Part shown: one piece after another, positions 15,322 to 27,601 of the stretch | How the letters are laid out: every line of letters starts with the position of its first letter | Numbering within the stretch: position 1 is the first letter of the stretch | From: an uncultured bacterium | GTDB taxonomy: Bacteria; Patescibacteriota; Minisyncoccia; Phycocordibacterales; UBA9973 | Reading direction: 5' to 3' | DNA length: 64,000 nt | Assembly (NCBI GenBank): GCA_903825255.1 | Contig: CAIJZZ010000070.1 | Span: forward strand, 8,767 to 72,766 | Made by a program: the position numbers and the translations under genes | Notes under the pieces: generated by a model | Told to the model about the DNA's origin: nothing | Database searches by the model: none | What the model saw: only the letters and a program-made list of their open reading frames with translations

Positions 15322-15969
15322 ATGCAACAATTCACAGAAAAAGATTATAAAAAAATTCTGATCTGTTTAACTCTTTATTTAAGTTCACTTTTTGCAGCAA
15401 ATACCTTAGGCTTAAAACTTATGCCTTTTCTTTTTGGCACACATCTTTCGGTGGCAGTTTTTTGTTTTCCAATTGTTTTTATTATGACCGATGTAATTGG
15501 AGAAGTTTATGGAAAAAAAATGGCTAAGAATTTCGTTTATGCTGGAATCTTAAGTATTTTTTTATTTTTGCTTTATTCTTTTATTTCAATGATTATGCCT
15601 TGGGCACAAGTGAGTCTTTGGGCTAAAGATGGATATAATTTAGTTTTTGGTATTTCTGTTCGTTTTTCTATAGCATCGATCATTGCTTATGCGATAGGTG
15701 AATATCAGGATGTTATTTCTTTTTTCTTTTTTAAAAAATATACCGGTGGAAAAATGTTTTGGTTACGTTCGAATTTATCTAATCTCTGGTCGCAATTGAT
15801 CGACTCCACTATTTTTATGTTTATTGCTTATTTAGGGCTAATGCCAGTAAAAACCATATTATTGATTATAATTCCATGGTGGCTCTATAAAGTGTTTATG
15901 GGATTTTTATATACCCCACTTTCTTATGTTGGAATACATCTTTTAAGAGATAAAAATGTTCAAAACTAA
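15322..15969 (+). CDS. VUT-family (YhhQ-like) queuosine-precursor/vitamin uptake transporter
   Basis: FPIVFIMTDVIGEVYG, AYAIGEYQDV and WSQLIDSTIFMFIAY align by eye to the E. coli YhhQ motifs. The profile suggests 6 TM. Confidence 0.8.
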   Translation: MQQFTEKDYKKILICLTLYLSSLFAANTLGLKLMPFLFGTHLSVAVFCFPIVFIMTDVIGEVYGKKMAKNFVYAGILSIFLFLLYSFISMIMPWAQVSLWAKDGYNLVFGISVRFSIASIIAYAIGEYQDVISFFFFKKYTGGKMFWLRSNLSNLWSQLIDSTIFMFIAYLGLMPVKTILLIIIPWWLYKVFMGFLYTPLSYVGIHLLRDKNVQN

Positions 15970-16489
15970 TAAGATAAAATATACTGCCTATGTAGCAGCA
16001 AGTATTGATGGACGTATTGCTAAAGATAGTCATAGCTTAAATACTTGGACAAGTGAAGAAGATTGGAATTTTTTTCAGCATGCTATTTCTAAGGTAGATG
16101 TTGTTGTAGTTGGAATGAATACTTATAAGGTTGTTGAAAAAAGATTAAAAAAACGTAAAACAATTGTTTTTTCTTCTAAATACAATTCGATAAAAACTAT
16201 CGGTTCAGTCACTTTTTTAAATCCAGCGAAAATAAATTTTCAAAAATTTATAAAACAAAATGATTTTAGAAATGTTGCTATTCTAGGTGGTCCAATGGTA
16301 TATACTTATTTTCTTCAAAATAAAATACTAAATGAACTTTTTGTGACTATCGAACCATGTGTTTTCACCACAGGAACCCCTATGTTTTCAGGTATAAAAT
16401 TTAAAAAACATAAATTTATTTTACAATCAGTAAAAAAACTTAATCAAAATGGAACCCTTTTGTTAAAATATAAAAACAATGCAAATTAA
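15956..16489 (+). CDS. RibD_C/DHFR-like reductase family protein
   Basis: YVAASIDGRIA, VVVGMNTYK and ILGGPMVYTYFL...ELFVTIEP fit the family pattern. The start overlaps the previous gene by 14 nt. Confidence 0.7.
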   Translation: MFKTNKIKYTAYVAASIDGRIAKDSHSLNTWTSEEDWNFFQHAISKVDVVVVGMNTYKVVEKRLKKRKTIVFSSKYNSIKTIGSVTFLNPAKINFQKFIKQNDFRNVAILGGPMVYTYFLQNKILNELFVTIEPCVFTTGTPMFSGIKFKKHKFILQSVKKLNQNGTLLLKYKNNAN

Positions 16490-17210
16490 AGCAATCAAAA
16501 CTGAGATTTTTAAAGAGAATGAAGATTTAATAAAATTCATCTCTAAACACATAAAAAATATTAAAGAAGGTTCTATTTTAGTAATATCTTCAAAAATAGT
16601 TGCTTTATCTGAAGGTAGAGTAGTTTCTAATTTAAATATTAAAGCTAAAGAAAAGTTAATTAAAATAGAAAGTGATTTAGCGATTAAAACCAAACTAGTC
16701 TGGTTTACCATTAAAGACGATATGGTTATGGCTTCAGCGGGTATTGATGAGTCAAATGGAAATGGTAGACTCATCCTTTTACCTAAAAATAGTTTTGATT
16801 CGGCAGAGTTAATTCTTAAAAAAATTAAAAAAATATTTAAAGTTAAAAAATTAGGCATTTTAATAAGCGATAGTGGGATACTTCCTTTACGAGCAGGAGT
16901 GATCGGTGTGGCAATAGGTTATGCTGGTTTTCAAGGAGTTAGGGATTATCAAGGGATGCTAGATATTTTTCGTAGGAATTTGGAATTTTCGAGAACTGAT
17001 GTTGCAGACAGCCTAGCGACTGGAGCGACCTTTTGCATGGGTGAAGGGAATGAAAGACAACCACTTGCTATAATTACAGATGCACCAGTTATTTTTAAAC
17101 AAAAAACAGATAGAAAAGAATTGATCATGAATAAAAAACAAGATATATATGCCCCACTTTTTAAAAATTTAAAAGTAAAAAAACACAAAAATAATGATAA
17201 AAAAAAGTAA
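16479..17210 (+). CDS. CofE-like (F420-0:gamma-glutamyl ligase family) protein
   Basis: VISSKIVALSEGR, ASAGIDESNGNG, ILISDSGILPLRAGVIGVAIGYAGF and ADSLATGATFCMGEGNERQP are present. It overlaps the upstream gene by 11 nt. Confidence 0.8.
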   Translation: MQIKAIKTEIFKENEDLIKFISKHIKNIKEGSILVISSKIVALSEGRVVSNLNIKAKEKLIKIESDLAIKTKLVWFTIKDDMVMASAGIDESNGNGRLILLPKNSFDSAELILKKIKKIFKVKKLGILISDSGILPLRAGVIGVAIGYAGFQGVRDYQGMLDIFRRNLEFSRTDVADSLATGATFCMGEGNERQPLAIITDAPVIFKQKTDRKELIMNKKQDIYAPLFKNLKVKKHKNNDKKK

Positions 17211-18222
17211 AAAATTTCAAACACCGTATTTAACTAATCTTATTTTAAAGCTAGCTCCTAAAATCGGAGCGAAAGTTTTAGTTGAATCAGAATGGAAAAT
17301 TGCTGGGCAAATAATTTATCCTAATGGTGTAGTCCGTTCACTTCGTATGTATTCCTTAGATTTAAATCATATTGCTTCGGCTGATATTGCCCGCGACAAG
17401 GATTTTGCTAAATTTTTTATGAAAAAAAAGGGCTATCCTATAGCAGAAGGAAAAACATTTTTTGAAAAAAATTGGGCCAAAATAGTGAAAAGTGATAGAA
17501 CGATTATTTCTGCAGATAAATATGCCAAAATGCTTGGTTATCCTGTTGTGGTGAAACCTAATAGTAAAAGCCAAGGCTCAGGGGTGTGTGTTGCTTTTAA
17601 TAAAAAAGAATTAAATAGCGCAATACTAGAAGTTTTTAAAGGTGATAAAGTAGCTATCGTTGAGCGATATTTACCAGGACATGATTATAGAGTTGTCGTT
17701 TTAGATGGGGAAATAATTTCTGCTTATGAAAGAATCCCATTATCTATAAAAGGAGATGGAAAAAGCTCAATCTTATCACTATTGAAACAAAAACAGAAAT
17801 ATTTTATTTTAAGTAAAAGAGATACCAGATTGAATTTTAATGATCGAAGAATTCAACTGAAATTAAAAAAAGCTGGTCTTACTCTTAAAAGTATTTTACC
17901 AAAAAACCTTGAGCTATTTTTATTAGACAATGCAAATTTATCTACAGGTGGGGATTCAATAGATGTTACAAAAACCATACATAATAACTTTAAAAAAATC
18001 GCAGTAAGACTTACTAAAGATATGGGGCTGCGCATAGCTGGAGTAGATATAATGGTAACTGAAGGAGATATCACTAAAAATCCCGAAAATTGTAAATATT
18101 ATATTATTGAAATAAATGCAGCCCCCGGACTAGATCACTATGTGACGACAGGGGAGGTGCAGAAGAAAAAAGTTGAAGCAATGTATTTGAAGGTTTTAAA
18201 AGCACTCGGGAAAAAAGATTAA
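17194..18222 (+). CDS. ATP-grasp ligase (RimK/cyanophycin-synthetase-like)
   Basis: GYPVVVKPNSKSQGSGV, ERYLPGHDYRVVVLDGEI, NLSTGG and AGVDIM..YIIEINAAPGL form the ATP-grasp core. It overlaps the upstream gene by 17 nt. Confidence 0.75.
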   Translation: MIKKSKKFQTPYLTNLILKLAPKIGAKVLVESEWKIAGQIIYPNGVVRSLRMYSLDLNHIASADIARDKDFAKFFMKKKGYPIAEGKTFFEKNWAKIVKSDRTIISADKYAKMLGYPVVVKPNSKSQGSGVCVAFNKKELNSAILEVFKGDKVAIVERYLPGHDYRVVVLDGEIISAYERIPLSIKGDGKSSILSLLKQKQKYFILSKRDTRLNFNDRRIQLKLKKAGLTLKSILPKNLELFLLDNANLSTGGDSIDVTKTIHNNFKKIAVRLTKDMGLRIAGVDIMVTEGDITKNPENCKYYIIEINAAPGLDHYVTTGEVQKKKVEAMYLKVLKALGKKD

Positions 18223-18255
18223 GATTAGTCAGTTGGTTTTTTTATTTTTTAGTAG

Positions 18256-18270
18256 TATATTTAAAGTATG
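18256..18270 (+). promoter_or_regulatory. -10 box placed for a leaderless transcript
   Basis: TATATT (18256-18261), then 6 nt, then ATG at 18268. Confidence 0.45.
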
Positions 18271-18597
18271 ATAGATTTAAATAAAATACAAAAAGAGATA
18301 ATGCGCAATAAAATAGAAAAAGGTTTTAATACCACTGATGTGGCTCTTGAATTTTGCCGGGCTCATGAAGAACTTTCTGAAGCTTTTTCAAAATTTAATA
18401 AAAATCAAGATGGTGTAGCTGAAGAATTTGCTGATGTGGCTATTTTTTTATTTGGTATGGCTGAAATTTTAGGTTTCGATTTAGAAAAAGAATTGGTTCG
18501 AAAAGTTAAAATTAATAAAAATCGCAAATATAAAAAATTAAAATCTCCAGACGGAAAAGATATTTTTATTAGAATTAAAACAAAAATAGATCCTTAA
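18268..18597 (+). CDS. small MazG-type nucleotide pyrophosphohydrolase
   Basis: 109 aa. HEELSEA...EEFADVAIFLFGMAE matches the all-alpha NTP-PPase EExxE/D pattern. Confidence 0.7.
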   Translation: MIDLNKIQKEIMRNKIEKGFNTTDVALEFCRAHEELSEAFSKFNKNQDGVAEEFADVAIFLFGMAEILGFDLEKELVRKVKINKNRKYKKLKSPDGKDIFIRIKTKIDP

Positions 18598-18600
18598 AAT

Positions 18601-18623
18601 AAAATCCCCAGCTGGGGATTTTA
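18601..18623. terminator. bidirectional intrinsic terminator
   Basis: AAAATCCCC-AGCT-GGGGATTTT lies between the convergent MazG-like gene and folA. Confidence 0.7.
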
Positions 18624-19139
18624 TTTTTTGATATATTCAGCAAATTCTATATCATAAATATTTAAATCATCTTTAGAATGTTTTTCACTTCTTATTTTTT
18701 GCCATTTCGTCTCTTCAATAATAGGGAAGTATACTTCGGCGTCAGAGAAAGAAGCATCTACGTGAGTAATGTAGAGTTTATCCACTCTGTCAATGAACAA
18801 TTTATAAATCATTCCGCCACCAATCACAAAATTTTCTTCGTTCTGGTTTTCAGTTTTTAGTTTGTTTTCTAATTCTTCTATTGAATGAAAAATCTCTATG
18901 CCTTCACGGTAAAAAGTTGGGTCTTGAGTAAGTACAATATTTCGACGATTTGGTAATGTTTTTCCTAGTTTGCCATCAGGGCCAATACCTAAGGATTCAA
19001 AAGTTTTTTGACCCATAATAATAGTGTGTCCACGAGTAGTATCCCGAAAGTGTTTCATGTCCGCAGGTAAATTCCAAAGAAGGTCATTCTTCTTGCCGAT
19101 TTCATTATTTTTACCAATAGCTACAATAATTGAAAGCAT
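18621..19139 (-). CDS. folA: dihydrofolate reductase
   Basis: IVAIGKNNEIGKKNDLLWNLPADMKHFRDTTRGHTIIMGQKTFESLG and VIGGGMIYKLF are DHFR signatures. Confidence 0.9.
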   Translation of the reverse strand: MLSIIVAIGKNNEIGKKNDLLWNLPADMKHFRDTTRGHTIIMGQKTFESLGIGPDGKLGKTLPNRRNIVLTQDPTFYREGIEIFHSIEELENKLKTENQNEENFVIGGGMIYKLFIDRVDKLYITHVDASFSDAEVYFPIIEETKWQKIRSEKHSKDDLNIYDIEFAEYIKK

Positions 19140-19140
19140 A

Positions 19141-19989
19141 TTATTTTATAATCTCTAAGCCTGTAATTGGTTCACCTGGATTAAAATAAGGGGCAAATGC
19201 TTGATATATTTCATCCACTAAATTTTCATCTCTTTTTTCTGCTCTATCAAAAATATTTTCTGGTAAAATTGGAAAAATATTTTCATGTGTATTCTTTCTT
19301 TGAATTAATTCCAGGGCTCCTTCATAATGAGTGTCATATATATGAGCATTGGAAATAGTATGTGTATATATTCCAGGGCGTACTTCTAATTTTTGGGCTA
19401 GTGTATACATCAATAAACTAAAACCAAAAGTATCAAAAGGACATCCCAGCATCATATCATTAGAACGAATAATGTTGTGTAAATGTAATCGTCCACCAAC
19501 AATATTTACTGTGAAAGCAAAAGGGCACGGAGCATTTTTTTTATAAGTTGCTTTCAAATTTGTTCCATATAAACCATCATCTGCTGGATCCCAGGTTATT
19601 ACCACCCCCTGTCTCGAATGTGGTTCTTCTTTTAAATGTTTGATTAATTGACCGAGTTGGTCTCTTCCGAAATGATGTCTCCAGCGATAACCATAGGCTG
19701 AGGTTATCGTACCATCTTCTTCAATAAATTGGTCCCACATTTTAGTATATTTTCTTAAAAATTCTGTATTTTTATCACCAGTGATAAACCAAACCTGTTC
19801 AGCGATAGGTGATTTTATTGGATTTTTTCGTAGAGTTAAGATTGGGAAACCCTCTTTTTCAACATCAATTTGAAAAGTAAGACCAGGTAATATTTTTATT
19901 TTATGTCCAGTACGTTCATTTAATTCCTCAATACCTTCTTCCATTATTTTTTTTATCAAATTTTGATAGATTGTGTCAAAAGTAGTCAT
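19141..19989 (-). CDS. thymidylate-synthase-family (ThyA-like) pyrimidine C5-methyl/hydroxymethyl transferase with Asp at the Asn specificity position
   Basis: ERTG, EQVWFITG, YGYRWR, catalytic Cys in NAPCPF, IIRSND and NAHIYDTH are present. LGCPFDTFGF replaces the canonical LGLPFNIASY. The stop is 1 nt from the folA start. Confidence 0.85.
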   Translation of the reverse strand: MTTFDTIYQNLIKKIMEEGIEELNERTGHKIKILPGLTFQIDVEKEGFPILTLRKNPIKSPIAEQVWFITGDKNTEFLRKYTKMWDQFIEEDGTITSAYGYRWRHHFGRDQLGQLIKHLKEEPHSRQGVVITWDPADDGLYGTNLKATYKKNAPCPFAFTVNIVGGRLHLHNIIRSNDMMLGCPFDTFGFSLLMYTLAQKLEVRPGIYTHTISNAHIYDTHYEGALELIQRKNTHENIFPILPENIFDRAEKRDENLVDEIYQAFAPYFNPGEPITGLEIIK

Positions 19990-20018
19990 ATGTTAAAGTA
20001 TACAAAAATAAAGATTTT

Positions 20019-20543
20019 ATGCCAAGCAATAATAAAAATATTAAATATCCATATTTACCAGAAGGAAAAGATATATTATATGTTCCGATTTCTGATAAAT
20101 ATATGGCTCGAGCTAAAGAAGTCGCTCGTGGTTCAAATGACCAAAGTATTCCTACTGGGGCTGTGATTGTTTCTGACGGAAAAATTATAGCTGAAGCTTC
20201 AAATAAAACACCATTATCAAATCCATTTTTAAAAAAATTACATGCAAAGTATTGCATAAGAAGAATGTTTAAAATACCTTCAGGTCAAAAATATTGGATT
20301 TGTCCTGGTTGTGCTTCGCATGAAAATCATGGAGAATATAGGGCAGTAGTTATGTTTCAAAAAAAGATAAAGGAAGTTAATTCTCCTTGTGATTTATATT
20401 TATGGGGACATTGGTGGTGTTGTAAGCCTTGTTGGGATAAGATGTTGGAACTTCCAGTACGAAATGTTTATTTATTAGAAGGAAGCGAAATATTATTTAA
20501 TTCTAATAATCCTGATAATTTAATCGGAAAACAATTTAAGTAA
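20019..20543 (+). CDS. cytidine/deoxycytidylate deaminase-fold zinc protein (divergent)
   Basis: AKEVARGSNDQSIPTGAVIVSDGKIIAEASN opens the CDA fold. HGE (in ENHGEYRAV) stands in place of HAE. CCKPCWDKM supplies the PCxxC motif. Confidence 0.6.
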   Translation: MPSNNKNIKYPYLPEGKDILYVPISDKYMARAKEVARGSNDQSIPTGAVIVSDGKIIAEASNKTPLSNPFLKKLHAKYCIRRMFKIPSGQKYWICPGCASHENHGEYRAVVMFQKKIKEVNSPCDLYLWGHWWCCKPCWDKMLELPVRNVYLLEGSEILFNSNNPDNLIGKQFK

Positions 20544-20544
20544 T

Positions 20545-20982
20545 ATGAAAAAGAAACTTTATATTGGTTGCAGTCTTACTCTTCTTCCAAATAACAAGAA
20601 AGAAGAATTTTTGAAAATGATTTCTAAAATAAAAAAAGAGTTGGATAAAAATTTTGAAATTTTAGAATTTTTAGGAATAAATGATCTTGAAACTACTCAT
20701 CCATATACTCCGAAGGAGATTTACGATTATGATATTAGAAAATGTGTTATGAAAGCTGATTGTATGCTCGCATTTTGTGATTATCCTTCTATTGGTCTCG
20801 GTTATGAGATGGCGACTGCCGTTGAAAAATTAGGTATTCCTGTATTAGCAGTGGCACACAAAGATCAAATAGTTGGTAGGATTATCAGAGGTATCGATCA
20901 GAAAAATTTTGAATTTAGGTATTATGATTCAATCGAAGAAATTATAGATAAAACAATAGAAAAATTTGACAAAATTATGTGA
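20545..20982 (+). CDS. nucleoside 2-deoxyribosyltransferase-like protein
   Basis: KLYIGCSL start and ADCMLAFCDYPSIGLGYEMATAVEKLGIPVLAV resemble the Nuc_deoxyrib_tr family layout, including the conserved Glu. Confidence 0.5.
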   Translation: MKKKLYIGCSLTLLPNNKKEEFLKMISKIKKELDKNFEILEFLGINDLETTHPYTPKEIYDYDIRKCVMKADCMLAFCDYPSIGLGYEMATAVEKLGIPVLAVAHKDQIVGRIIRGIDQKNFEFRYYDSIEEIIDKTIEKFDKIM

Positions 20983-20994
20983 AAATGCTATGCT
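20966..20994 (+). promoter_or_regulatory. sigma70-like promoter upstream of the DEAD-box helicase
   Basis: TTGACA (20966-20971), 17-nt spacer, TATGCT (20989-20994). It lies within the 3-prime end of the preceding gene. Confidence 0.5.
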
Positions 20995-21111
20995 AAAGCA
21001 TCATTCTCACTATTATTTAACGAGAACTGACGATTGTGGATATCAATATATGACTTTTTGTCGTTTAGCCCAGCCTGGGTAGCATTGATGACCATGACAA
21101 AAAGAAAATAT

Positions 21112-22431
21112 ATGATAAATAAGCAACGCAGTTTCGCGCCCGCCCGCAACGGTGAGCGTAGCGATTCGGGCAGGCGTGGAGCTTCTGCTCCATCTCGCGG
21201 TAAATTTAATAGTAGTCATTCTAGTCACTCTAAACCTAGTTTCCATTCAAAAAGTGGAGGCAGTTTTGGTAGTAAAAAAAGAAGTAGTGGTGGTAAAAAA
21301 AGATTTGGTGGAGAACGAATTGATTTTTCACGTTTTGTGAAGAAAGCTCAGATGATAAAGGAAATTCCATATGTTTCTAAACATACGTTTTCTGATTTTC
21401 CATTTAATTCACAACTTTATAAAAATATAGCTAAAGCTGGTTTTATAAATCCACGACCAATTCAAGATCAAGCTATTCCTTCAGTACTTGCCGGGAAAGA
21501 TGTTTTCGGTATGGCTAATACCGGGACAGGGAAGACAGCCGCTTTTCTTTTGCCACTTATTGAAAAAATTGCGAAAACAAAAGGTCAATCAAAAAGAGAA
21601 ACAGTACTAATTATGGCTCCGACTCGCGAACTGGCTTTACAAATAGAATCAGATTTTAAAAATCTCGCTTTTGGGTTTGGAATGTTTTCTGTTTGTTGTG
21701 TCGGTGGACTTCCAATAATGAAACAAATTTCTGAATTAAAAATGGGTGTCTCTTTTGTAATCGGCACCCCAGGTCGCTTACGAGACCTTATTGCTCGAAA
21801 AGTGTTAGATTTATCACAATGTCACTCTGTGGTACTCGATGAGGCAGATCGAATGCTTGATATGGGCTTCCGTGATGATATGGTTTTTATTTTAGCTAAG
21901 TGCCCAAAAGAGGATAGACAAACTCTTTTCTTTTCTGCCACACTCTCACCTGAAATTAAAAAACTCACGACTGAATTTCTAAAAGATCCAGTTTTCATTT
22001 CTGTTATCTCTGGGGAGACTGCCAAAAATATTGATCAGGATATCGTGCGAGTTCGCACAAAAGAAGAAAAATTAGAAAAGCTTCATGAAATTTTAAAAAA
22101 AGATGGATCAGATAAAGTTTTAATTTTTCGAGAAATGAAACACAGTGTAGACACTTTAACTAAGGAATTAAATCATTTAGGTTTTAAAGTCGGTTCGATT
22201 CATGGTGACAAAAGAAGCCGAGAACGTATTCGTACTCTAGACGCTTTTAAGCAAGATAAAATAAATATTTTAATTGCGACAGATGTCGCGGCTAGAGGCC
22301 TAGATATCCCTGATGTGACCCATGTGATCAATTATGATATTCCACAGAATTACGATACTTATGTGCATCGTATTGGACGTACTGGCCGTTCAGGTAAATC
22401 AGGCACTGCTCTCACTTTCGTGCCAGCCTAA
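21112..22431 (+). CDS. DEAD-box ATP-dependent RNA helicase with basic Ser/Gly/Arg-rich N-terminal tail
   Basis: Q-motif PRPIQDQAIP, then ANTGTGKTAAF, VLDEADRML, SATL and HRIGRTGRSG. The start is uncertain: in-frame ATGs at 21088, 21094 and 21112. Confidence 0.9.
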   Translation: MINKQRSFAPARNGERSDSGRRGASAPSRGKFNSSHSSHSKPSFHSKSGGSFGSKKRSSGGKKRFGGERIDFSRFVKKAQMIKEIPYVSKHTFSDFPFNSQLYKNIAKAGFINPRPIQDQAIPSVLAGKDVFGMANTGTGKTAAFLLPLIEKIAKTKGQSKRETVLIMAPTRELALQIESDFKNLAFGFGMFSVCCVGGLPIMKQISELKMGVSFVIGTPGRLRDLIARKVLDLSQCHSVVLDEADRMLDMGFRDDMVFILAKCPKEDRQTLFFSATLSPEIKKLTTEFLKDPVFISVISGETAKNIDQDIVRVRTKEEKLEKLHEILKKDGSDKVLIFREMKHSVDTLTKELNHLGFKVGSIHGDKRSRERIRTLDAFKQDKINILIATDVAARGLDIPDVTHVINYDIPQNYDTYVHRIGRTGRSGKSGTALTFVPA

Positions 22432-24130: not shown

Positions 24131-25009
24131 ATGCAGACAGATGAAAATTGGATTAAGAAATTTAGGCTTCTAATTCTTGTTGTTTTCCTTTTAGTTTGTG
24201 TTACTTTTCTTTTTTACTTAGATTGGCAAGAATCCCATAAGGAGTTTACTTTTGCAGTGTTGGATATAGGTCAAGGAGATGCTCTTTTTATAGAGTCTCC
24301 GACTGGTGTGCAAATACTCGTCGATGCTGGACCGACAAAAAAAGTTTTGAATGAATTATCAAAAGTAATGTCACCATTTGATCGCAGCCTAGATGCAATT
24401 ATTATGACGCACCCAGACCAAGATCATATTGGTGGATTTGCGGATGTTTTGAAATATTATAAAGTAGGGGAAGTTTTCGAACCAGGAATCTTAACTGATT
24501 CAAAAACTTATCAAAATTTAGAGGTAGAAATACAGAAGAAAAAAATCCCAGATATTTTAGCGCGCCGCGGAATGCGGTTAGATTTAGGTGGGGGAGCAGT
24601 GCTAGATATTTTATTTCCAGATCGAGATGTCTCTGCTTGGGAAACAAACGAAGGTTGTATTGTCGCACGTCTTTCATATGGTGATATCTCTGTGATGTTG
24701 ACTGGGGATGCACCGATTAAAACAGAAAAAATAATTTTGAGTGAAAATAAAAGCGAACAACTCAAAAGTACTATTTTAAAAGCTGGACACCATGGTTCGC
24801 GTACTTCTACTTCACAAGAATTTTTACAAGCTGTAAATCCAGAATATGCTTTAATTTCTGTTGGAAAAGATAATAAATATGGTCATCCACACCAAGAAGT
24901 ATTAGACCTTTTGAATAAATTTAAAGCTCAAATTTTACGAACGGATCTGCTCGGCACAATAATAATGAAATCTGACGGAGATATGTTAAAATGGAAATAT
25001 GCAAGATAA
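24131..25009 (+). CDS. ComEC/Rec2-type metallo-beta-lactamase domain protein (MBL domain only, one TM)
   Basis: VLDIGQGDALFIE, IMTHPDQDHIGG, MLTGDA, KAGHHGSRTS and YGHPH match the ComEC C-terminal nuclease-like domain. No channel domain is present. Confidence 0.8.
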   Translation: MQTDENWIKKFRLLILVVFLLVCVTFLFYLDWQESHKEFTFAVLDIGQGDALFIESPTGVQILVDAGPTKKVLNELSKVMSPFDRSLDAIIMTHPDQDHIGGFADVLKYYKVGEVFEPGILTDSKTYQNLEVEIQKKKIPDILARRGMRLDLGGGAVLDILFPDRDVSAWETNEGCIVARLSYGDISVMLTGDAPIKTEKIILSENKSEQLKSTILKAGHHGSRTSTSQEFLQAVNPEYALISVGKDNKYGHPHQEVLDLLNKFKAQILRTDLLGTIIMKSDGDMLKWKYAR

Positions 25010-26243
25010 AAAAGTAGAAAAACTTATTAAAAGTGAGGCAAAAAGACAAGCAGAGGGCTTGGAACTTATTCCTTCTGAAAACTATGTTTCAGAAGATGTA
25101 TTAAAAGCGAATGGTTCTATTTTTACTAATAAATATTCAGAAGGTTATCCAGGTCGTAGGTATTATGGTGGACAGGAATTTACTGATCAAGTTGAGAGAT
25201 TGGCGATAGAAAGAGTTTGTAAACTTTTTAATTGTAAATTTGCGAACGTTCAGCCTCATTCTGGTGCTCCAGCCAACTTAGCAGTTTATGCAGCGCTTTT
25301 ACAGCCGGGGGACACGGTACTTGGTATGGATTTATCGCACGGTGGACATTTGACGCATGGACATCCGATGACCTTACCAGCGAAGATTTATAAATTTGTG
25401 ACTTATAAAATGAAAGATCCTGATACAGGAGAGATTGATTATGAGGATCTTCGTCGGGTAGCACTTCTGACAAAACCAAAAATAATTTTAGCTGGTTTCT
25501 CAGCTTACCCTCGAACCCTAGACTATAAAAAATTCGTAGAAATTGCCCATGAAGTGGGGGCAGTCACGATGGCAGATATGGCGCATATCGCTGGACTTAT
25601 CGCAGGCAAAGCACTGCGCAATCCATTCGATGATGGTTTTGATATTATCACTTCTACGACGCATAAAACTTTACGTGGTCCGCGTGGAGGCATAATACTC
25701 ACTCGAGAAAACGAAGAGATCGCGAAGAAAATTGATAAAGCTATTTTCCCTGGTATTCAAGGTGGTCCGCATATGCATATCATTGCCGCCAAGGCTGTGG
25801 CTTTTGGTGAAGCTTCAACTCCGAAATTTAAAATATATGCAAAACAGATTCTTAAAAATGCTAAAGCCATGGAACAAGTTTTCAAGAAAAATAATATCCG
25901 AATGATTGGTGGTGGCACAGATAACCATTTAATATTAGCGGATGTTTTCGGCTCATTGGGTGTGACAGGCAAAGAAGCACAGACAGTTCTCGATGAAGTT
26001 GGAATCACGCTTAATATGAATTCAATTGCGGGGGACACTAGAAAACCACTTGATCCTTCTGGTATTAGATTTGGCACACCAGCTATAACGACTAGAAGAT
26101 TTAAAGAGAAAGAATGTAAACGCGTAGCGGAGCTTATGATTCTGACCCTTAAGAACAAAAATGATAAGAAGGTTAAAGAAGCAGTGCATAAAGAAATTAA
26201 AAAATTAGCCAAAAAATTTCCAATACCAAAGAAATTTGTATAA
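24999..26243 (+). CDS. glyA: serine hydroxymethyltransferase
   Basis: ELIPSENYVS, RYYGG, VQPHSGAPAN and TSTTHKTLRGPRGG (PLP lysine) are present. Confidence 0.95.
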   Translation: MQDKKVEKLIKSEAKRQAEGLELIPSENYVSEDVLKANGSIFTNKYSEGYPGRRYYGGQEFTDQVERLAIERVCKLFNCKFANVQPHSGAPANLAVYAALLQPGDTVLGMDLSHGGHLTHGHPMTLPAKIYKFVTYKMKDPDTGEIDYEDLRRVALLTKPKIILAGFSAYPRTLDYKKFVEIAHEVGAVTMADMAHIAGLIAGKALRNPFDDGFDIITSTTHKTLRGPRGGIILTRENEEIAKKIDKAIFPGIQGGPHMHIIAAKAVAFGEASTPKFKIYAKQILKNAKAMEQVFKKNNIRMIGGGTDNHLILADVFGSLGVTGKEAQTVLDEVGITLNMNSIAGDTRKPLDPSGIRFGTPAITTRRFKEKECKRVAELMILTLKNKNDKKVKEAVHKEIKKLAKKFPIPKKFV

Positions 26244-26245
26244 AA

Positions 26246-26878
26246 ATGGATAAAGAAAAATTAGATGAATCATCAGAAAATGAAACAGAGGTGGAAGTAA
26301 AGTTCCAACCTACTGAAGAACAATTAAAAAAACTTCTAGAAGGAGCAATATTTGTGCATGAAAAAGAAAATCATGATATTTATTATGATTTTAATGACTA
26401 TAGGTTAACTAAACAAGATGTTCGGTTGCGATTTAGAAATGGATTTCCTCAATTAAAAGTGGGAAAGGAACGGGGTGTAGCTGATGAAATAAAAAATGAA
26501 GAAGATATAAAAAAATATTTTAAGACAGACTTGGATTTAAAAGATTATATTTATAAAAATATGACTGTTTTTATTGAATATAAAGTAAAAAGAAAAGAAT
26601 ATGAAAAGGAAGGATTTACGATTGATTTAGATGATTGCAATTTTGGTTATAAATTATGTGAAATCGAAAAGATAGTAAAAGACAAGAGTGAAATTAGTAA
26701 AATAAAAAAAGAGATATTAGATTTTGCTTTTAAAAATGGAATTGAATATAGGAAAATTTCTTCTAAGAGAGATGAGTATCTCAGGAAAATGAGACCGGAA
26801 GTTTATAAAGAGCTCAACGGGAAAAAGATGGAAGATGAAGAAAAATTTAAAGATCAATGGCCTGCTGGTATACATTAA
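26246..26878 (+). CDS. CYTH-domain protein
   Basis: An N-terminal EVEVKF (ExExK) motif and an overall charged beta-barrel-like pattern. Confidence 0.65.
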   Translation: MDKEKLDESSENETEVEVKFQPTEEQLKKLLEGAIFVHEKENHDIYYDFNDYRLTKQDVRLRFRNGFPQLKVGKERGVADEIKNEEDIKKYFKTDLDLKDYIYKNMTVFIEYKVKRKEYEKEGFTIDLDDCNFGYKLCEIEKIVKDKSEISKIKKEILDFAFKNGIEYRKISSKRDEYLRKMRPEVYKELNGKKMEDEEKFKDQWPAGIH

Positions 26879-26893
26879 AATTTTGAATTAATT

Positions 26894-27601
26894 ATGGTAA
26901 AAAAAATAAAGCATAAAGGTAAGTTAATAGTAATTGATGGAATAGACGGAAGTGGGAAAACCACTCAAATAAATTTATTAACAAATAAATTAAAAGCTGA
27001 TGGGTTTAAAGTTAAAATTGTTCATTTTCCTAATTATGATAATTTTTTTGGTGCTTTTATAGGGCACTGTTTAAGTGAACAATATTATAATTTTCTTAAT
27101 GTCCATCCTAAAATAGTTTCAGTTCTTTATGCAGCCGATAGGTGGGAGTCTGGAGAACAAATAAAAAAAATGCTAAAAGAAGGATATATCGTTGTTCTTG
27201 ATCGATACGTAAGTGCAAATCAAATTCATCAAGGGGGAAAAATAAAAAGTGCAAAAAAAAGAGCTAGTTTTATAAAGTGGCTTAATCAAATGGAATATGA
27301 GGTTTTTAAAATTCCAAAACCAGACTTAACTTTATATTTAAATTTACCGATTAATATTGTTTTAGAACTTTTGAAAAAACGTGAAAGTAGTAAGATAAAA
27401 AGAGAATATTTAAAGAAAGGTAAAAAGGATGTGCATGAGGCAGATGTGAATTTTTTAATTAATTCACGTAAAAGCGCCTTAAAACTCGTAAAGGAAATCC
27501 CAAATTTTATAAAAATTGAGTGCTCAAAAAAAGGCGAGATTCTATCACGAGAAAATATTCACGAAATGGTTTATGGAGAAGTTAAGAGGATTTTAAAATA
27601 A
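26894..27601 (+). CDS. tmk: thymidylate kinase
   Basis: P-loop VIDGIDGSGKTTQ and the DRY-like LDRYVSAN motif. Confidence 0.88.
   Translation: MVKKIKHKGKLIVIDGIDGSGKTTQINLLTNKLKADGFKVKIVHFPNYDNFFGAFIGHCLSEQYYNFLNVHPKIVSVLYAADRWESGEQIKKMLKEGYIVVLDRYVSANQIHQGGKIKSAKKRASFIKWLNQMEYEVFKIPKPDLTLYLNLPINIVLELLKKRESSKIKREYLKKGKKDVHEADVNFLINSRKSALKLVKEIPNFIKIECSKKGEILSRENIHEMVYGEVKRILK

Follow-up and report, generated by a model that had tools for sequence, protein, structure and literature searches.

The preference for uracil or cytosine is set by whether position 177 (E. coli numbering) is Asn or Asp, in E. coli and L. casei thymidylate synthases (TS) and also in the dCMP hydroxymethylase of T4 (Hardy & Nalivaika 1992; Liu & Santi 1992; Graves et al. 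1992; all in the summary given by PMC8670742). According to that summary, mutating this Asn to Asp switched two ThyA enzymes to dCMP, and positions 177 and 147 are the two that best tell phage contigs whose cytosine is modified from those whose cytosine is not (PMC8670742). The Xp12 enzyme makes 5-methyl-dCMP; it and five of seven metagenomic D177 enzymes yielded 5-methyl-dC in E. coli, and the remaining two gave none (bioRxiv 10.1101/2024.12.05.627091, a 2024 preprint). In the phage module, 5-methyl-dC nucleotides are deaminated to dT nucleotides, in addition to the formation of pre-replicative 5mC, and the sole characterised phage deaminase acts on triphosphates, not on 5-methyl-dCMP (bioRxiv 10.1101/2024.12.05.627091).

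The phage module combines a PRA-PH pyrophosphatase, an Asp-type synthase (TS-D), a dCMP deaminase and a dihydrofolate reductase (DHFR), the last being among the module genes of Xp12 and PaMx74; natural fusions join the deaminase to TS-D (P0140) and PRA-PH to TS-D (P0202). In the present study, the same four linked functions were found in bacteria, in a window of 64 kb (the whole stretch of DNA analysed) from an uncultured, ultra-small bacterium and at related loci from 80 Parcubacteria (CPR) genomes, about 12 kb being examined around each. The module is already known from phages; for cellular organisms, our literature search turned up no paper on such a module.

Results

The ORF coordinates, strands and translations given in an earlier note on this DNA were reproduced (Table 1). 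Its central claim, made by eye, was that a ThyA homologue carries Asp where ThyA has the Asn that reads uracil. Rigorous alignment upholds this: 'LGCPFDTFGF' of the query falls on 'LGVPFNIASY' in HMMER alignments against solved thymidylate synthases, and in BLASTP alignments D186 corresponds to N177 of E. coli ThyA, to the Asp of Xp12 TS and to D179 of T4 dCMP hydroxymethylase. From its sequence, TS-D is a predicted dCMP C5-methyltransferase that would use methylene-THF and release dihydrofolate (DHF).

Table 1. Features of the TS-D region, with positions in the window
Feature	Position	Strand	Evidence
RibD_C/DHFR-like reductase	15956..16489	+	PF01872 54.7 bits, PF00186 36.8 bits
MazG-like all-alpha NTP pyrophosphatase, 109 aa	18268..18597	+	PF12643 29.8 bits
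folA, dihydrofolate reductase	18621..19139	-	PF00186 176 bits
TS-D, thymidylate-synthase homologue, 282 aa	19141..19989	-	PF00303 185.7 bits
Asp186 codon GAT (E. coli ThyA Asn177 position)	19432..19434	-	alignments and codon read
Divergent CDA-fold (dCMP-deaminase-family) zinc deaminase, 174 aa	20019..20543	+	PF00383 39.9 bits
DNPH1/Rcl-like, nucleoside 2-deoxyribosyltransferase superfamily, 145 aa	20545..20982	+	profile E 4e-9
glyA, serine hydroxymethyltransferase (regenerates methylene-THF)	24999..26243	+	PF00464 510.9 bits
tmk, dTMP kinase	26894..27601	+	TIGR00041 100.4 bits, cut-off 83.25
dut, trimeric dUTPase, 140 aa	27602..28024	+	PF00692 77.2 bits

TS-D shares with the E. coli ThyA-FolA pair (EC 2.1.1.45) the fold, the translational coupling with folA, the conserved TS-type C-terminal tail, the residues C146, E58, Y94, R21, R126, R166, S167, D169, H207 and Y209 (E. 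coli numbering) and the folate-site residues W80, D169, L172, G173 and F176. The AF2 model has a pLDDT of 83, and its best 50 Foldseek matches are all ThyA (TM 0.7-0.8). In contrast to ThyA, Asn177 is replaced by Asp, His147 by Pro, Trp83 by Phe, Arg127 by Gln and Gln165 by Ile (D177/P147/F83/Q127/I165), 9 residues are inserted ahead of the catalytic Cys, and identity is 29%.

The retained catalytic and folate-site residues would suit an ordinary thymidylate synthase that methylates dUMP despite Asp177, its co-varying residues forming a lineage-specific uracil site and its dUMP being supplied by the neighbouring dCMP-deaminase-family enzyme and Dut. In favour of this, the thymidylate synthase equivalog model TIGR03284 is passed (122 bits, cut-off 108.35), and TS-D is apparently the sole TS gene near these housekeeping genes. 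As the earlier note had stated, no canonical thyA or thyX is present in the window, which holds a single ORF of the TS family and lacks the RHRxxS motif of ThyX; neither thyX nor an N177 thyA was seen within ~12 kb around each related locus. The two metagenomic D177 enzymes that gave no 5-methyl-dC point the same way (bioRxiv 10.1101/2024.12.05.627091). Nevertheless, we consider an ordinary synthase doubtful, since the Asn-to-Asp change switched two ThyA enzymes to dCMP (PMC8670742) and all characterised natural TS-fold enzymes with Asp use a cytosine substrate. Furthermore, TS-D scores far below the cut-offs of NF002495-NF002499 (five of six PRK01827-series ThyA equivalog models), NF010393 (PRK13821.1) and TIGR03283.

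The substitutions go together. Asp177 is accompanied by H147P, W83F, R127Q/H and Q165I/V in 80/80 related CPR genes; Asp occurs in 122 of the 141 alignable nearest 50%-identity cluster representatives, about 100 cluster representatives also having the co-varying signature. This invariance marks the Asp as a trait of the family and speaks against both chance and sequencing error, and the co-varying changes, H147P included, strengthen the specificity-switch reading. H147 and Q165, which in ThyA help to form the network of hydrogen bonds that surrounds O4 and Asn177, are both lost, and this argues against an enzyme acting on dUMP. Agarwalla et al. reportedly improved an engineered dCMP methylase in 1997 by removing the His that is residue 147 in E. 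coli and 199 in L. casei, and TS-D likewise has no His there. The engineered dCMP methylases L. casei N229D and E. coli N177D carry the Asn-to-Asp change that is natural in TS-D; these are point mutants, whereas TS-D is a family of natural origin, ancient and diversified, with further co-varying changes. An objection foreseen in the earlier note was that Asp might be common among dUMP-specific ThyA of this lineage. The Asp is indeed universal there, but none of these enzymes has been shown to be dUMP-specific, so that only half of the objection holds. Were the Asp protonated, it might in principle recognise uracil, which counts against a switch to cytosine.

Comparison with ThyA, hydroxymethylases and phage dCMP methylases placed TS-D nearest to the phage enzymes. 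By BLASTP, Xp12 TS is the best of three matches to the query at 188 bits (257 residues, 38% identity), ahead of E. coli ThyA at 112 bits and T4 dCMP hydroxymethylase at 37. In the NJ tree, the D-type sequences fall into a single clade (61/100 bootstraps), in which CPR TS-D is a nested clade (95/100). The D177/P147/F83 signature is common to the TS of Xp12, PaMx74 and RcSimone, and the enzymes of the Xp12/PaMx74/RcSimone-Hastad module also share the WDPxxDGL...KN(V/I)PCP insertion ahead of the catalytic Cys and the C-terminal tail. That the nearest characterised relative is a dCMP methyltransferase is a further point against an ordinary synthase.

The TS-D stop codon lies 1 nt from the folA start, as first described. 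A DHFR, FolA or RibD_C-type, is near TS-D in 74/80 related loci, and in 24/80 the RibD_C/DHFR-like family replaces FolA after TS-D. The proposal that an adjoining DHFR implies reductive methylation thus fits the wider set and the DHFR of Xp12 and PaMx74; the DHFR coupling, the conserved folate-site residues and the conserved tail together point to this chemistry.

A hydroxymethylase like T4 gp42, making 5-hydroxymethyl-dCMP, whose deamination would give 5-hydroxymethyl-dUMP for a DNPH1-like hydrolase to clear or use, appears very unlikely. It is true that gp42 and the CMP hydroxymethylases MilA/BcmA share with TS-D the fold, the Asp at the specificity position and a cytosine nucleotide substrate, and that a DNPH1-like gene follows the deaminase. 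However, identity to gp42 is 23%, and the C-terminal tail conserved in TS-D is absent or replaced in gp42 and MilA/BcmA; TS-D also keeps Ser167, as do deoxy-specific enzymes. Hydroxymethylases release THF and need no DHFR, and the closest characterised relatives of TS-D yield 5-methyl-dC.

The neighbour first noted as deoxyribosyltransferase-like does belong to that superfamily and is closest to DNPH1/Rcl (2'-deoxynucleoside 5'-phosphate N-hydrolase), its best solved relative (E 2e-4 by single sequence); in the PDB, DNPH1 is labelled 5-hydroxymethyl-dUMP N-hydrolase. The protein keeps the catalytic Glu of PSLGxGYE (GLGYE) together with the Asp and the N-terminal Tyr, and unlike DNPH1/Rcl it has GCSLT in place of the GSIRGG phosphate-binding loop. 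MilA is paired with a MilB-type N-glycosidase, a hydrolase of the deoxyribosyltransferase superfamily, and the window similarly pairs TS-D with a DNPH1-like gene. Such a gene is near TS-D in just 13/80 loci, a second, canonical DNPH1-like form occurring in other loci; this scarcity argues against hydroxymethylation. The protein is probably accessory to the module, and it is not orthologous to the phage protein.

The MazG-like assignment in the earlier note was borne out by PF12643 and by an intact metal motif, EExxE...EExxD (EELSE...EEFAD); there is also a weak match to 1VMG and a PHROG pyrophosphatase match at 1e-12. The protein may supply dCMP from dCTP or sanitise 5-methyl-dCTP. In the window, a folate-related operon also ends with its gene. 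Sister lineages have in its place a dCTP-deaminase-like (Dcd-like) gene: among the 80 loci, TS-D/FolA is adjoined by the MazG-like gene in 25, by the Dcd-like gene in 51 and never by both. This exclusivity tracks phylogeny and so may reflect a single replacement event. In 51/51 cases the catalytic Glu of the Dcd-like protein is Pro, so no dUTP would be made by that mechanism; the usual dCTP to dUTP route is therefore not encoded there, which counts against an ordinary synthase. On one contig, probably from a phage, the Glu-to-Pro gene likewise adjoins a fusion of deaminase and TS-D.

The deaminase gene is divergent from TS-D, with 29 nt between their starts, and lies within 2.5 kb of it in 76/80 loci. 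Its motif is H104-G-E106 ... C135-K-P-C138, with HxE and CxxC invariant, and an extra H75/C79/C95/C98 cluster is present. The CDA-family assignment made earlier stands, with HGE and CxxC; the literal PCxxC does not, as Cys precedes the CxxC. The best profile matches are the dCMP deaminases 2HVV and 4P9C (E about 2e-6), and the fold search does not separate the protein from TadA or guanine deaminase. It had no tblastn hit in phages and an hhalign probability of 21.6% against the Xp12 deaminase; it is thus not an orthologue of the phage 5mC-selective deaminases.

The genes glyA, tmk and dut were all found nearby, as claimed; in the related loci, TS-D has glyA within 4 kb in 43/80 and tmk in 47/80. 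NusG, L11, MurB, DEAD helicase, L28, ArgRS and others border the region, with no compositional break, and relatives have the same cluster in the same ribosomal-protein neighbourhood. These features leave next to no room for a prophage or recent viral island outside the cell's own metabolism, to which a module typical of phages and the few IMG/VR contigs with TS-D at 46-62% identity might otherwise point. The monophyly of CPR TS-D speaks against it as well, as does the near absence of phage homologues for the deaminase and the MazG-like protein, the latter not being orthologous to the phage pyrophosphatase. No phage structural or integrase genes were seen bordering the cluster, and no patchy presence among close relatives.

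Discussion

The bacterial module differs from that of the Xp12-type phages in several respects. It sits in the chromosome among housekeeping genes and is vertically inherited across a bacterial class; its genes are divergent and convergent, whereas those of the phages are co-oriented. Its deaminase is a non-orthologous CDA branch with the extra Cys/His cluster, its pyrophosphatase is of the PF12643 MazG-like or Glu-to-Pro Dcd-like kind instead of PRA-PH, residue 127 is Q or H, and tmk, glyA and dut are linked. The end product is likely dTMP, as opposed to 5mC DNA in phages.

The two hypotheses first offered for this locus, 5-methyl-dCMP deaminated to dTMP and pre-replicative 5-methyl-dC, both match activities of the phage module (bioRxiv 10.1101/2024.12.05.627091). 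In the second, 5-methyl-dCMP would be phosphorylated and replace much or all cytosine in the cell's DNA, the deaminase drawing dT nucleotides from the pool. The presence and conservation of all four phage functions would agree with it, as would the triphosphate-level action of the characterised phage deaminase (bioRxiv 10.1101/2024.12.05.627091). DNA-scavenging episymbionts could also tell self from prey DNA in this way. We regard such substitution as unlikely: no 5-methyl-dCMP kinase is evident, and the cluster kinase passes a dTMP-kinase equivalog model. No cellular organism with fully substituted cytosine is known to us, and in a shallow literature search no account of Patescibacteria with unusual DNA came up.

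For the first hypothesis, we infer the following substrates and step order. An NTP pyrophosphatase, MazG-like here and the Glu-to-Pro dCTP-deaminase-fold protein in sister lineages, would convert dCTP to dCMP; TS-D would methylate dCMP to 5-methyl-dCMP with oxidation of the folate to DHF, and FolA, translationally coupled to TS-D, would regenerate methylene-THF together with GlyA. The divergently transcribed CDA-fold deaminase may then turn 5-methyl-dCMP into dTMP, which Tmk would phosphorylate. We lean, with some reserve, towards this route from dCTP through dCMP and 5-methyl-dCMP to dTMP. With the steps in this order, dUMP would not be an intermediate of the main flux, and the tmk gene of the cluster suggests that the pathway ends in dTMP. 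The deaminase, TS, DHFR, Tmk, Dut and GlyA equally suit the classical order dCMP to dUMP to dTMP, in which an ordinary synthase would work; the swapped order is favoured by two things only, namely the signature of the active site and the Dcd-like gene with its Glu-to-Pro change. A canonical Dut is retained, and its dUMP would have no obvious fate in the swapped order, which is a point against it.

As TS-D is the only visible thymidylate synthase, both in the window and in the ~12 kb around related loci, its presence together with the deaminase suggests that these bacteria obtain thymidine via dCMP methylation. On balance, it is somewhat probable that the gene is the cellular counterpart of the Xp12 enzyme and that the module serves as a housekeeping thymidylate pathway of Parcubacteria, in which two classical steps would be swapped and cytosine would be methylated first and deaminated after.

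Results

TS-D, the Asp-type thymidylate synthase homologue of the window, is a protein of 282 aa which matched the Pfam family PF00303 over residues 7-244 with 185.7 bits (cut-off 24.3). Its AlphaFold (AF2) model had a pLDDT of 83, and all of the top 50 Foldseek matches in the PDB were ThyA structures (TM 0.7-0.8); the only low-confidence stretch was a lineage-specific insertion at 142-156, which reaches the catalytic Cys155 and contains it. The nucleophile Cys146 together with Glu58, Tyr94, Trp80, Arg21, Arg126, Arg166, Ser167, Asp169, His207 and Tyr209 was kept in TS-D, and this catalytic set apart from Trp80 (with Arg126 as Arg126') was kept in 79-80 of 80 CPR homologues. In E. coli ThyA, whose numbering is used for the catalytic set and the specificity positions, Asn177 reads O4 and N3-H of uracil, and His147 and Gln165 take part in the hydrogen bonding that surrounds Asn177 and the pyrimidine O4. 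The earlier note had placed an Asp at this position by eye, and three independent alignments agreed, as Asp186 of TS-D fell on Asn177. By MAFFT and BLASTP it stood opposite Asn177 of E. coli ThyA, the Asp of the phage Xp12 enzyme and Asp179 of T4 dCMP hydroxymethylase (the T4 sequence used is identical to PDB 1B49), and HMMER paired LGCPFDTFGF of TS-D with LGVPFNIASY of solved thymidylate synthases. The GAT codon and the distance of 1 nt from the TS-D stop codon to the folA start were likewise as that note had them. His147 and Gln165 were not kept, with Pro and Ile in their places; in the CPR homologues Pro at 147, Val/Ile/Leu at 165 and Asp at 177 were each found in 80/80. The NCBIfam equivalog TIGR03284 was passed with 122 bits (cut-off 108.35), TIGR03283 gave 83.4 bits, below its cut-off of 174.55, and NF002497, NF002495, NF002496, NF002499, NF002498 and NF010393 gave 67-150 bits against cut-offs of 325-576.

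An exhaustive search with TS-D was made in 1.84 billion cluster representatives, and Asp was present at position 177 in 122 of the best 150 matches. In nearly all of these 122, position 147 was Pro or some other non-His residue, 83 was Phe, 127 was Gln/His/Arg and 165 was hydrophobic. The N177/H147/W83/R127/Q165 type was confined, within the 150, to matches from E about 1e-33 downward. Among phage records (50,697 in all) the nearest matches were Xp12, PaMx74, PaMx28, Mallos and their relatives (33-38% identity). The cytosine of phage Xp12 is entirely 5-methylcytosine (5mC). Synthases of Xp12, PaMx74 and RcSimone have D177, P147 and F83, the same as TS-D, which scored 188 bits against the Xp12 enzyme, 112 against E. 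coli ThyA and 37 against T4 gp42. Neighbour-joining gathered the D-type sequences in one clade with moderate bootstrap only (61/100), within which the CPR sequences were a well-supported clade (95/100). Replacement of Asn by Asp turns ThyA into a dCMP methylase, a classical result as summarised in PMC8670742, and in the MetaGPA study positions 177 and 147 were the best separators of phage contigs with modified and unmodified cytosine (PMC8670742). The Xp12 synthase and 5/7 metagenomic D177 enzymes make 5-methyl-dC in E. coli, and the dCMP-deaminase-family genes adjoining these synthases include 5mC-selective deaminases which convert 5-methyl-dCTP to dTTP (bioRxiv 10.1101/2024.12.05.627091). 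Fusions of D-type synthases were also seen among the cluster representatives, with a dCMP-deaminase domain (P0140), a PRA-PH pyrophosphatase domain (P0202) and an HNH endonuclease domain (P0148). A few IMG/VR contigs filed as viral (L090-L095) carried TS-D at 46-62% identity to the window protein, and there the genes for Dut, the deaminase and the MazG-like protein run in one direction; these contigs may come from CPR phages or may be CPR sequence that was misfiled.

The window has a low GC content of about 32% and is cellular chromosome, with genes for NusG, L11, MurB, an Nramp transporter, a DEAD-box helicase, L28, an M50 protease, SOD, GlyA, Tmk, Dut and ArgRS. The nearest homologues of TS-D (up to 91% identity) belonged to metagenome-assembled genomes labelled Candidatus Nomurabacteria, Paceibacterota or Patescibacteria, which places the source of the window in the Parcubacteria group of the CPR. 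When one genome per GTDB species was scanned and relatives with the KN[VI]PCP motif were counted, 263 genomes encoded such a relative. The best 80 of these 263 (56-86% identity) were all from Patescibacteria, covering Nomura-, Taylor-, Kaiser-, Doudna-, Vogel-, Colwell-, Adler- and Moranbacteria, and D177, P147 and F83 occurred together in 80/80. Neighbours were counted by profile searches of ORFs in these 80 loci (Table). Neither ThyX nor an N177 ThyA was seen in the window or in the roughly 12 kb surrounding each related locus.

Table. Location of the D-type synthase, its neighbours and related features (L numbers are loci carrying TS-D relatives)
Feature	Location	Remark
Five abutting or overlapping genes	window 15322-18597 (+)	Vut_1 transporter first, MazG-like gene last
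RibD_C-type reductase	window 15956-16489	
MazG-like gene	window 18268-18597 (+)	109 aa
folA	window 18621-19139 (-)	
TS-D	window 19141-19989 (-)	
Codon of Asp186	window 19432-19434 (-)	GAT
Gap between TS-D and deaminase start codons	window 19990-20018; L001:9972-10000; L003:5972-6000	29 nt, divergent
Deaminase	window 20019-20543 (+)	
DNPH1-like gene	window 20545-20982 (+)	145 aa
CYTH-domain (triphosphate tunnel) protein	window 26246-26878 (+)	between glyA and tmk; same in L005, L022, L023
Dcd-like, Pro at catalytic Glu	L075:6845-7480; L067:7372-8022; 49 other loci	immediately downstream of D-type synthase
Dcd-like, Glu-to-Pro form	L170:9335-9973 (-)	beside deaminase-TS-D fusion, probable phage contig
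Second, canonical DNPH1-like form (MKIYFAGSIRGGRDD...PSLGVGYE)	L022:562-975; L027:3600-4013; L053:3206-3643; L051:8364-8768	near dut and tmk
NT5C-type 5'(3')-deoxyribonucleotidase and two NUDIX hydrolases	L003:8617-9198 (-); L005:3108-4175 (-)	join the cluster in relatives
Deaminase within 2.5 kb of TS-D (<=2.5 kb)	76/80 loci	70 divergent and adjacent
DHFR near TS-D	74/80 loci	FolA 51, RibD_C-type 24
tmk near TS-D	47/80 loci	
glyA near TS-D	43/80 loci	
DNPH1-like near TS-D	13/80 loci	

Gene calls in three relatives gave the same core (deaminase, TS-D with FolA, MazG-like gene) beside ribosomal-protein operons, which argues that the cluster is not a prophage. Origin from a prophage or island was ruled out by the flanking housekeeping genes, the even GC content, the conserved synteny and the monophyly of the CPR sequences, and that the region is a viral island is hardly credible. 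Recent import of the neighbours from phages was also ruled out, because their homologues were nearly absent from the 50,697 phage records: tblastn found no match for the deaminase and a single weak one for the MazG-like protein. Since TS-D and the deaminase diverge from start codons separated by just 29 nt in the window and in two relatives, both promoters must overlap coding sequence or each other. A consensus promoter and terminator scan of 18100-21200 gave no more sites than shuffled sequence.

The neighbour described in the earlier note as a protein of CDA fold matched PF00383 with 39.9 bits (cut-off 25). The HxE/CxxC zinc and catalytic motifs had canonical spacing, and H104, E106, C135 and C138 were invariant in 37 sequences; an insert, modelled at lower confidence, held further invariant H75, C79, C95 and C98, which are probably a second zinc site. 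Best profile matches were dCMP deaminases (2HVV 2.3e-6, 4P9C 3.6e-6), followed by TadA (6e-4). The AF2 model (pLDDT 77.6) gave a Foldseek TM of about 0.45 to all CDA classes alike, the ComEB equivalog gave 24 bits against a cut-off of 219, and hhalign of the deaminase profile with the Xp12 deaminase reached a probability of 21.6% only. The protein belongs to a divergent CDA branch. The synteny with TS-D (76/80 loci) and the deaminase-synthase fusion would favour a nucleotide substrate. A tRNA scan, which bears on the need for a TadA, found no tRNA gene in the window. As substrates, dCMP deaminases of the classical kind also take 5-substituted dCMP. The one characterised phage deaminase, however, needs triphosphates (bioRxiv 10.1101/2024.12.05.627091).

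The deoxyribosyltransferase-like gene of the earlier note lies on the plus strand, and the best solved relatives of its product were DNPH1/Rcl (profile E 4e-9). The catalytic Glu in PSxGxGYE and the Asp and Tyr were kept, and the N-terminal GSIRGG loop that binds the 5'-phosphate was replaced by LYIGCSLT. A canonical loop of the GSIRGG type was found only in the second DNPH1-like form (L022, L027, L053). The DNPH1-like protein is accessory.

The MazG-type assignment of the first neighbour held, as the protein scored 29.8 bits with PF12643 (cut-off 27) and contained E34-E35-x-x-E38 and E52-E53-x-x-D56; it matched 1VMG weakly and a PHROG pyrophosphatase at 1e-12. This gene was present in 25 loci, which make up the Nomurabacteria-type clade, and it adjoins TS-D and FolA there with or without folate-ligase genes. 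In 51 other loci a dCTP-deaminase-like (Dcd-like) gene of roughly 210 aa follows TS-D, and no locus had both. The alternation follows phylogeny, so a single replacement event may account for it. Dcd-like proteins passed the dCTP-deaminase equivalog model (114-125 bits, cut-off 92.8), and are probably annotated as dCTP deaminase, but are unlikely to have that activity: the catalytic Glu (TLELFN in PDB 4XJC and 2QXX) was Pro in 51/51, and a Pro there would bar the established mechanism of dCTP deamination. Both the RSS that binds phosphate and the hydrolytic-site Asp were kept, and the protein is best read as a putative dNTP pyrophosphatase. In Xp12-type phages a PRA-PH pyrophosphatase lies directly upstream of the synthase. 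MazG-like, Dcd-like and PRA-PH proteins all occur with D-type synthases, and thus three unrelated pyrophosphatase families serve as partners, which fits the need for dCMP from dCTP. A Dcd-like partner of different origin would also support the cytosine route. A rival reading makes TS-D a dUMP-specific ThyA of the ordinary kind whose site is unusual, and the cluster content and the passing of TIGR03284 are compatible with it. What mutants and comparisons have shown for Asp177 speaks against this reading, as do the missing His147 and Gln165 and the Pro for Glu in the Dcd-like partner, and it is rather unlikely.

The folA gene beside TS-D, also named in the earlier note, was recovered with PF00186 (176 bits), and a DHFR is present in the phage modules of Xp12, PaMx74 and RcSimone too. 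Hydroxymethylases release THF and need no DHFR, and T4 gp42 is without the C-terminal segment that closes the folate site of ThyA (PMC5175136). In contrast, the CPR and Xp12-type enzymes keep this tail, which ends in a hydrophobic I/V-x motif, and its residues Pro271, Ile275, Gly277, Leu278 and Ile280 were invariant in the CPR alignment. TS-D had only 23% identity (37 bits) with T4 gp42, and with its tail present and a DHFR linked it differs from the gp42 type (PMC5175136). Ser167 is kept, as in deoxy-specific enzymes, whereas ribo-specific MilA and BcmA have Ala (PMC5175136). These features argue that TS-D would be a methylase rather than a hydroxymethylase, and the latter activity is very unlikely.

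In the run of five genes at 15322-18597, the transporter and the MazG-like gene enclose a RibD_C/DHFR-like reductase, then a CofE-like gamma-glutamate ligase and then an ATP-grasp ligase. The CofE-like protein ("putative folate metabolism gamma-glutamate ligase") scored 203 bits with TIGR04132, below the cut-off of 350 bits. The run looks like an operon for folate salvage and polyglutamylation without FolC, and the MazG-CofE-Vut order was also found in L003, L024-L026 and L029. Where FolA was missing, a RibD_C-type reductase took its place right after TS-D or the Dcd-like gene in 24/80 loci (L032-L041, L054, L056, L059 and L064 among them), and it is a candidate for a non-orthologous dihydrofolate reductase. 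The window has both FolA and the RibD_C-type reductase, and the RibD_C-type profile also matched the DHFR genes of Xp12, PaMx74 and RcSimone.

Discussion

In the present study, signature, phylogeny and synteny, with the activity of related phage enzymes taken from the literature, were the basis for a proposed pathway dCTP, dCMP, 5-methyl-dCMP, dTMP, dTDP, to which we give somewhat better than even chances. The MazG-like protein would convert dCTP to dCMP, TS-D would methylate dCMP to 5-methyl-dCMP with release of DHF, the deaminase would convert 5-methyl-dCMP to dTMP and Tmk would phosphorylate this to dTDP, the folate being recycled by FolA and GlyA. We infer the substrates of all four CPR proteins, as well as the mono- or triphosphate level of the deamination. 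Compared with the classical order of dCMP, dUMP and dTMP, the proposed route would have equal net chemistry with its steps swapped.

The same genes raise the possibility of cellular DNA with 5mC substitution. Pre-replicative 5mC DNA in the cell would have every phage function at its disposal, yet the kinase of the cluster is of the standard dTMP type; we regard such DNA as improbable. A slightly lower chance still is given to the full form of this idea, in which Parcubacteria, like the phages, would hydrolyse dCTP, methylate dCMP before replication, carry 5-methylcytosine for most or all chromosomal cytosine and obtain thymidine by deaminating part of that pool.

The enzymes and the module are already known from phages. 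In the literature we found no link of Patescibacteria to dCMP methylation, CPR papers calling the gene thyA, and found neither the D177 type nor the swapped pathway logic described for cellular organisms. Textbooks have cellular thymidylate synthesis always proceeding via dUMP, with ThyA or ThyX as the enzyme. Should the whole class rely on the D-type enzyme as its housekeeping synthase, the proposed pathway would be a third cellular solution, in which cytosine is methylated first and deaminated second and dUMP and dUTP are kept out of the main flux. The automated annotations "thymidylate synthase", "dCTP deaminase" and "dCMP deaminase" would then be systematically wrong on substrate across hundreds of CPR genomes, and metabolic reconstructions that use them would have to be revised. 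The module, regarded as an anti-restriction device of phages, would either have given rise to a cellular pathway or be derived from one, which bears on gene flow between CPR and viruses. In addition, the CPR deaminase family becomes a candidate in the search for new 5mC-selective deaminases for methylation sequencing. We know of no cellular organism with a pre-replicatively substituted base, and Parcubacteria would be the first if the substitution were true; for these DNA-scavenging episymbionts, a 5mC chromosome would then be a chemical mark of self against host DNA.
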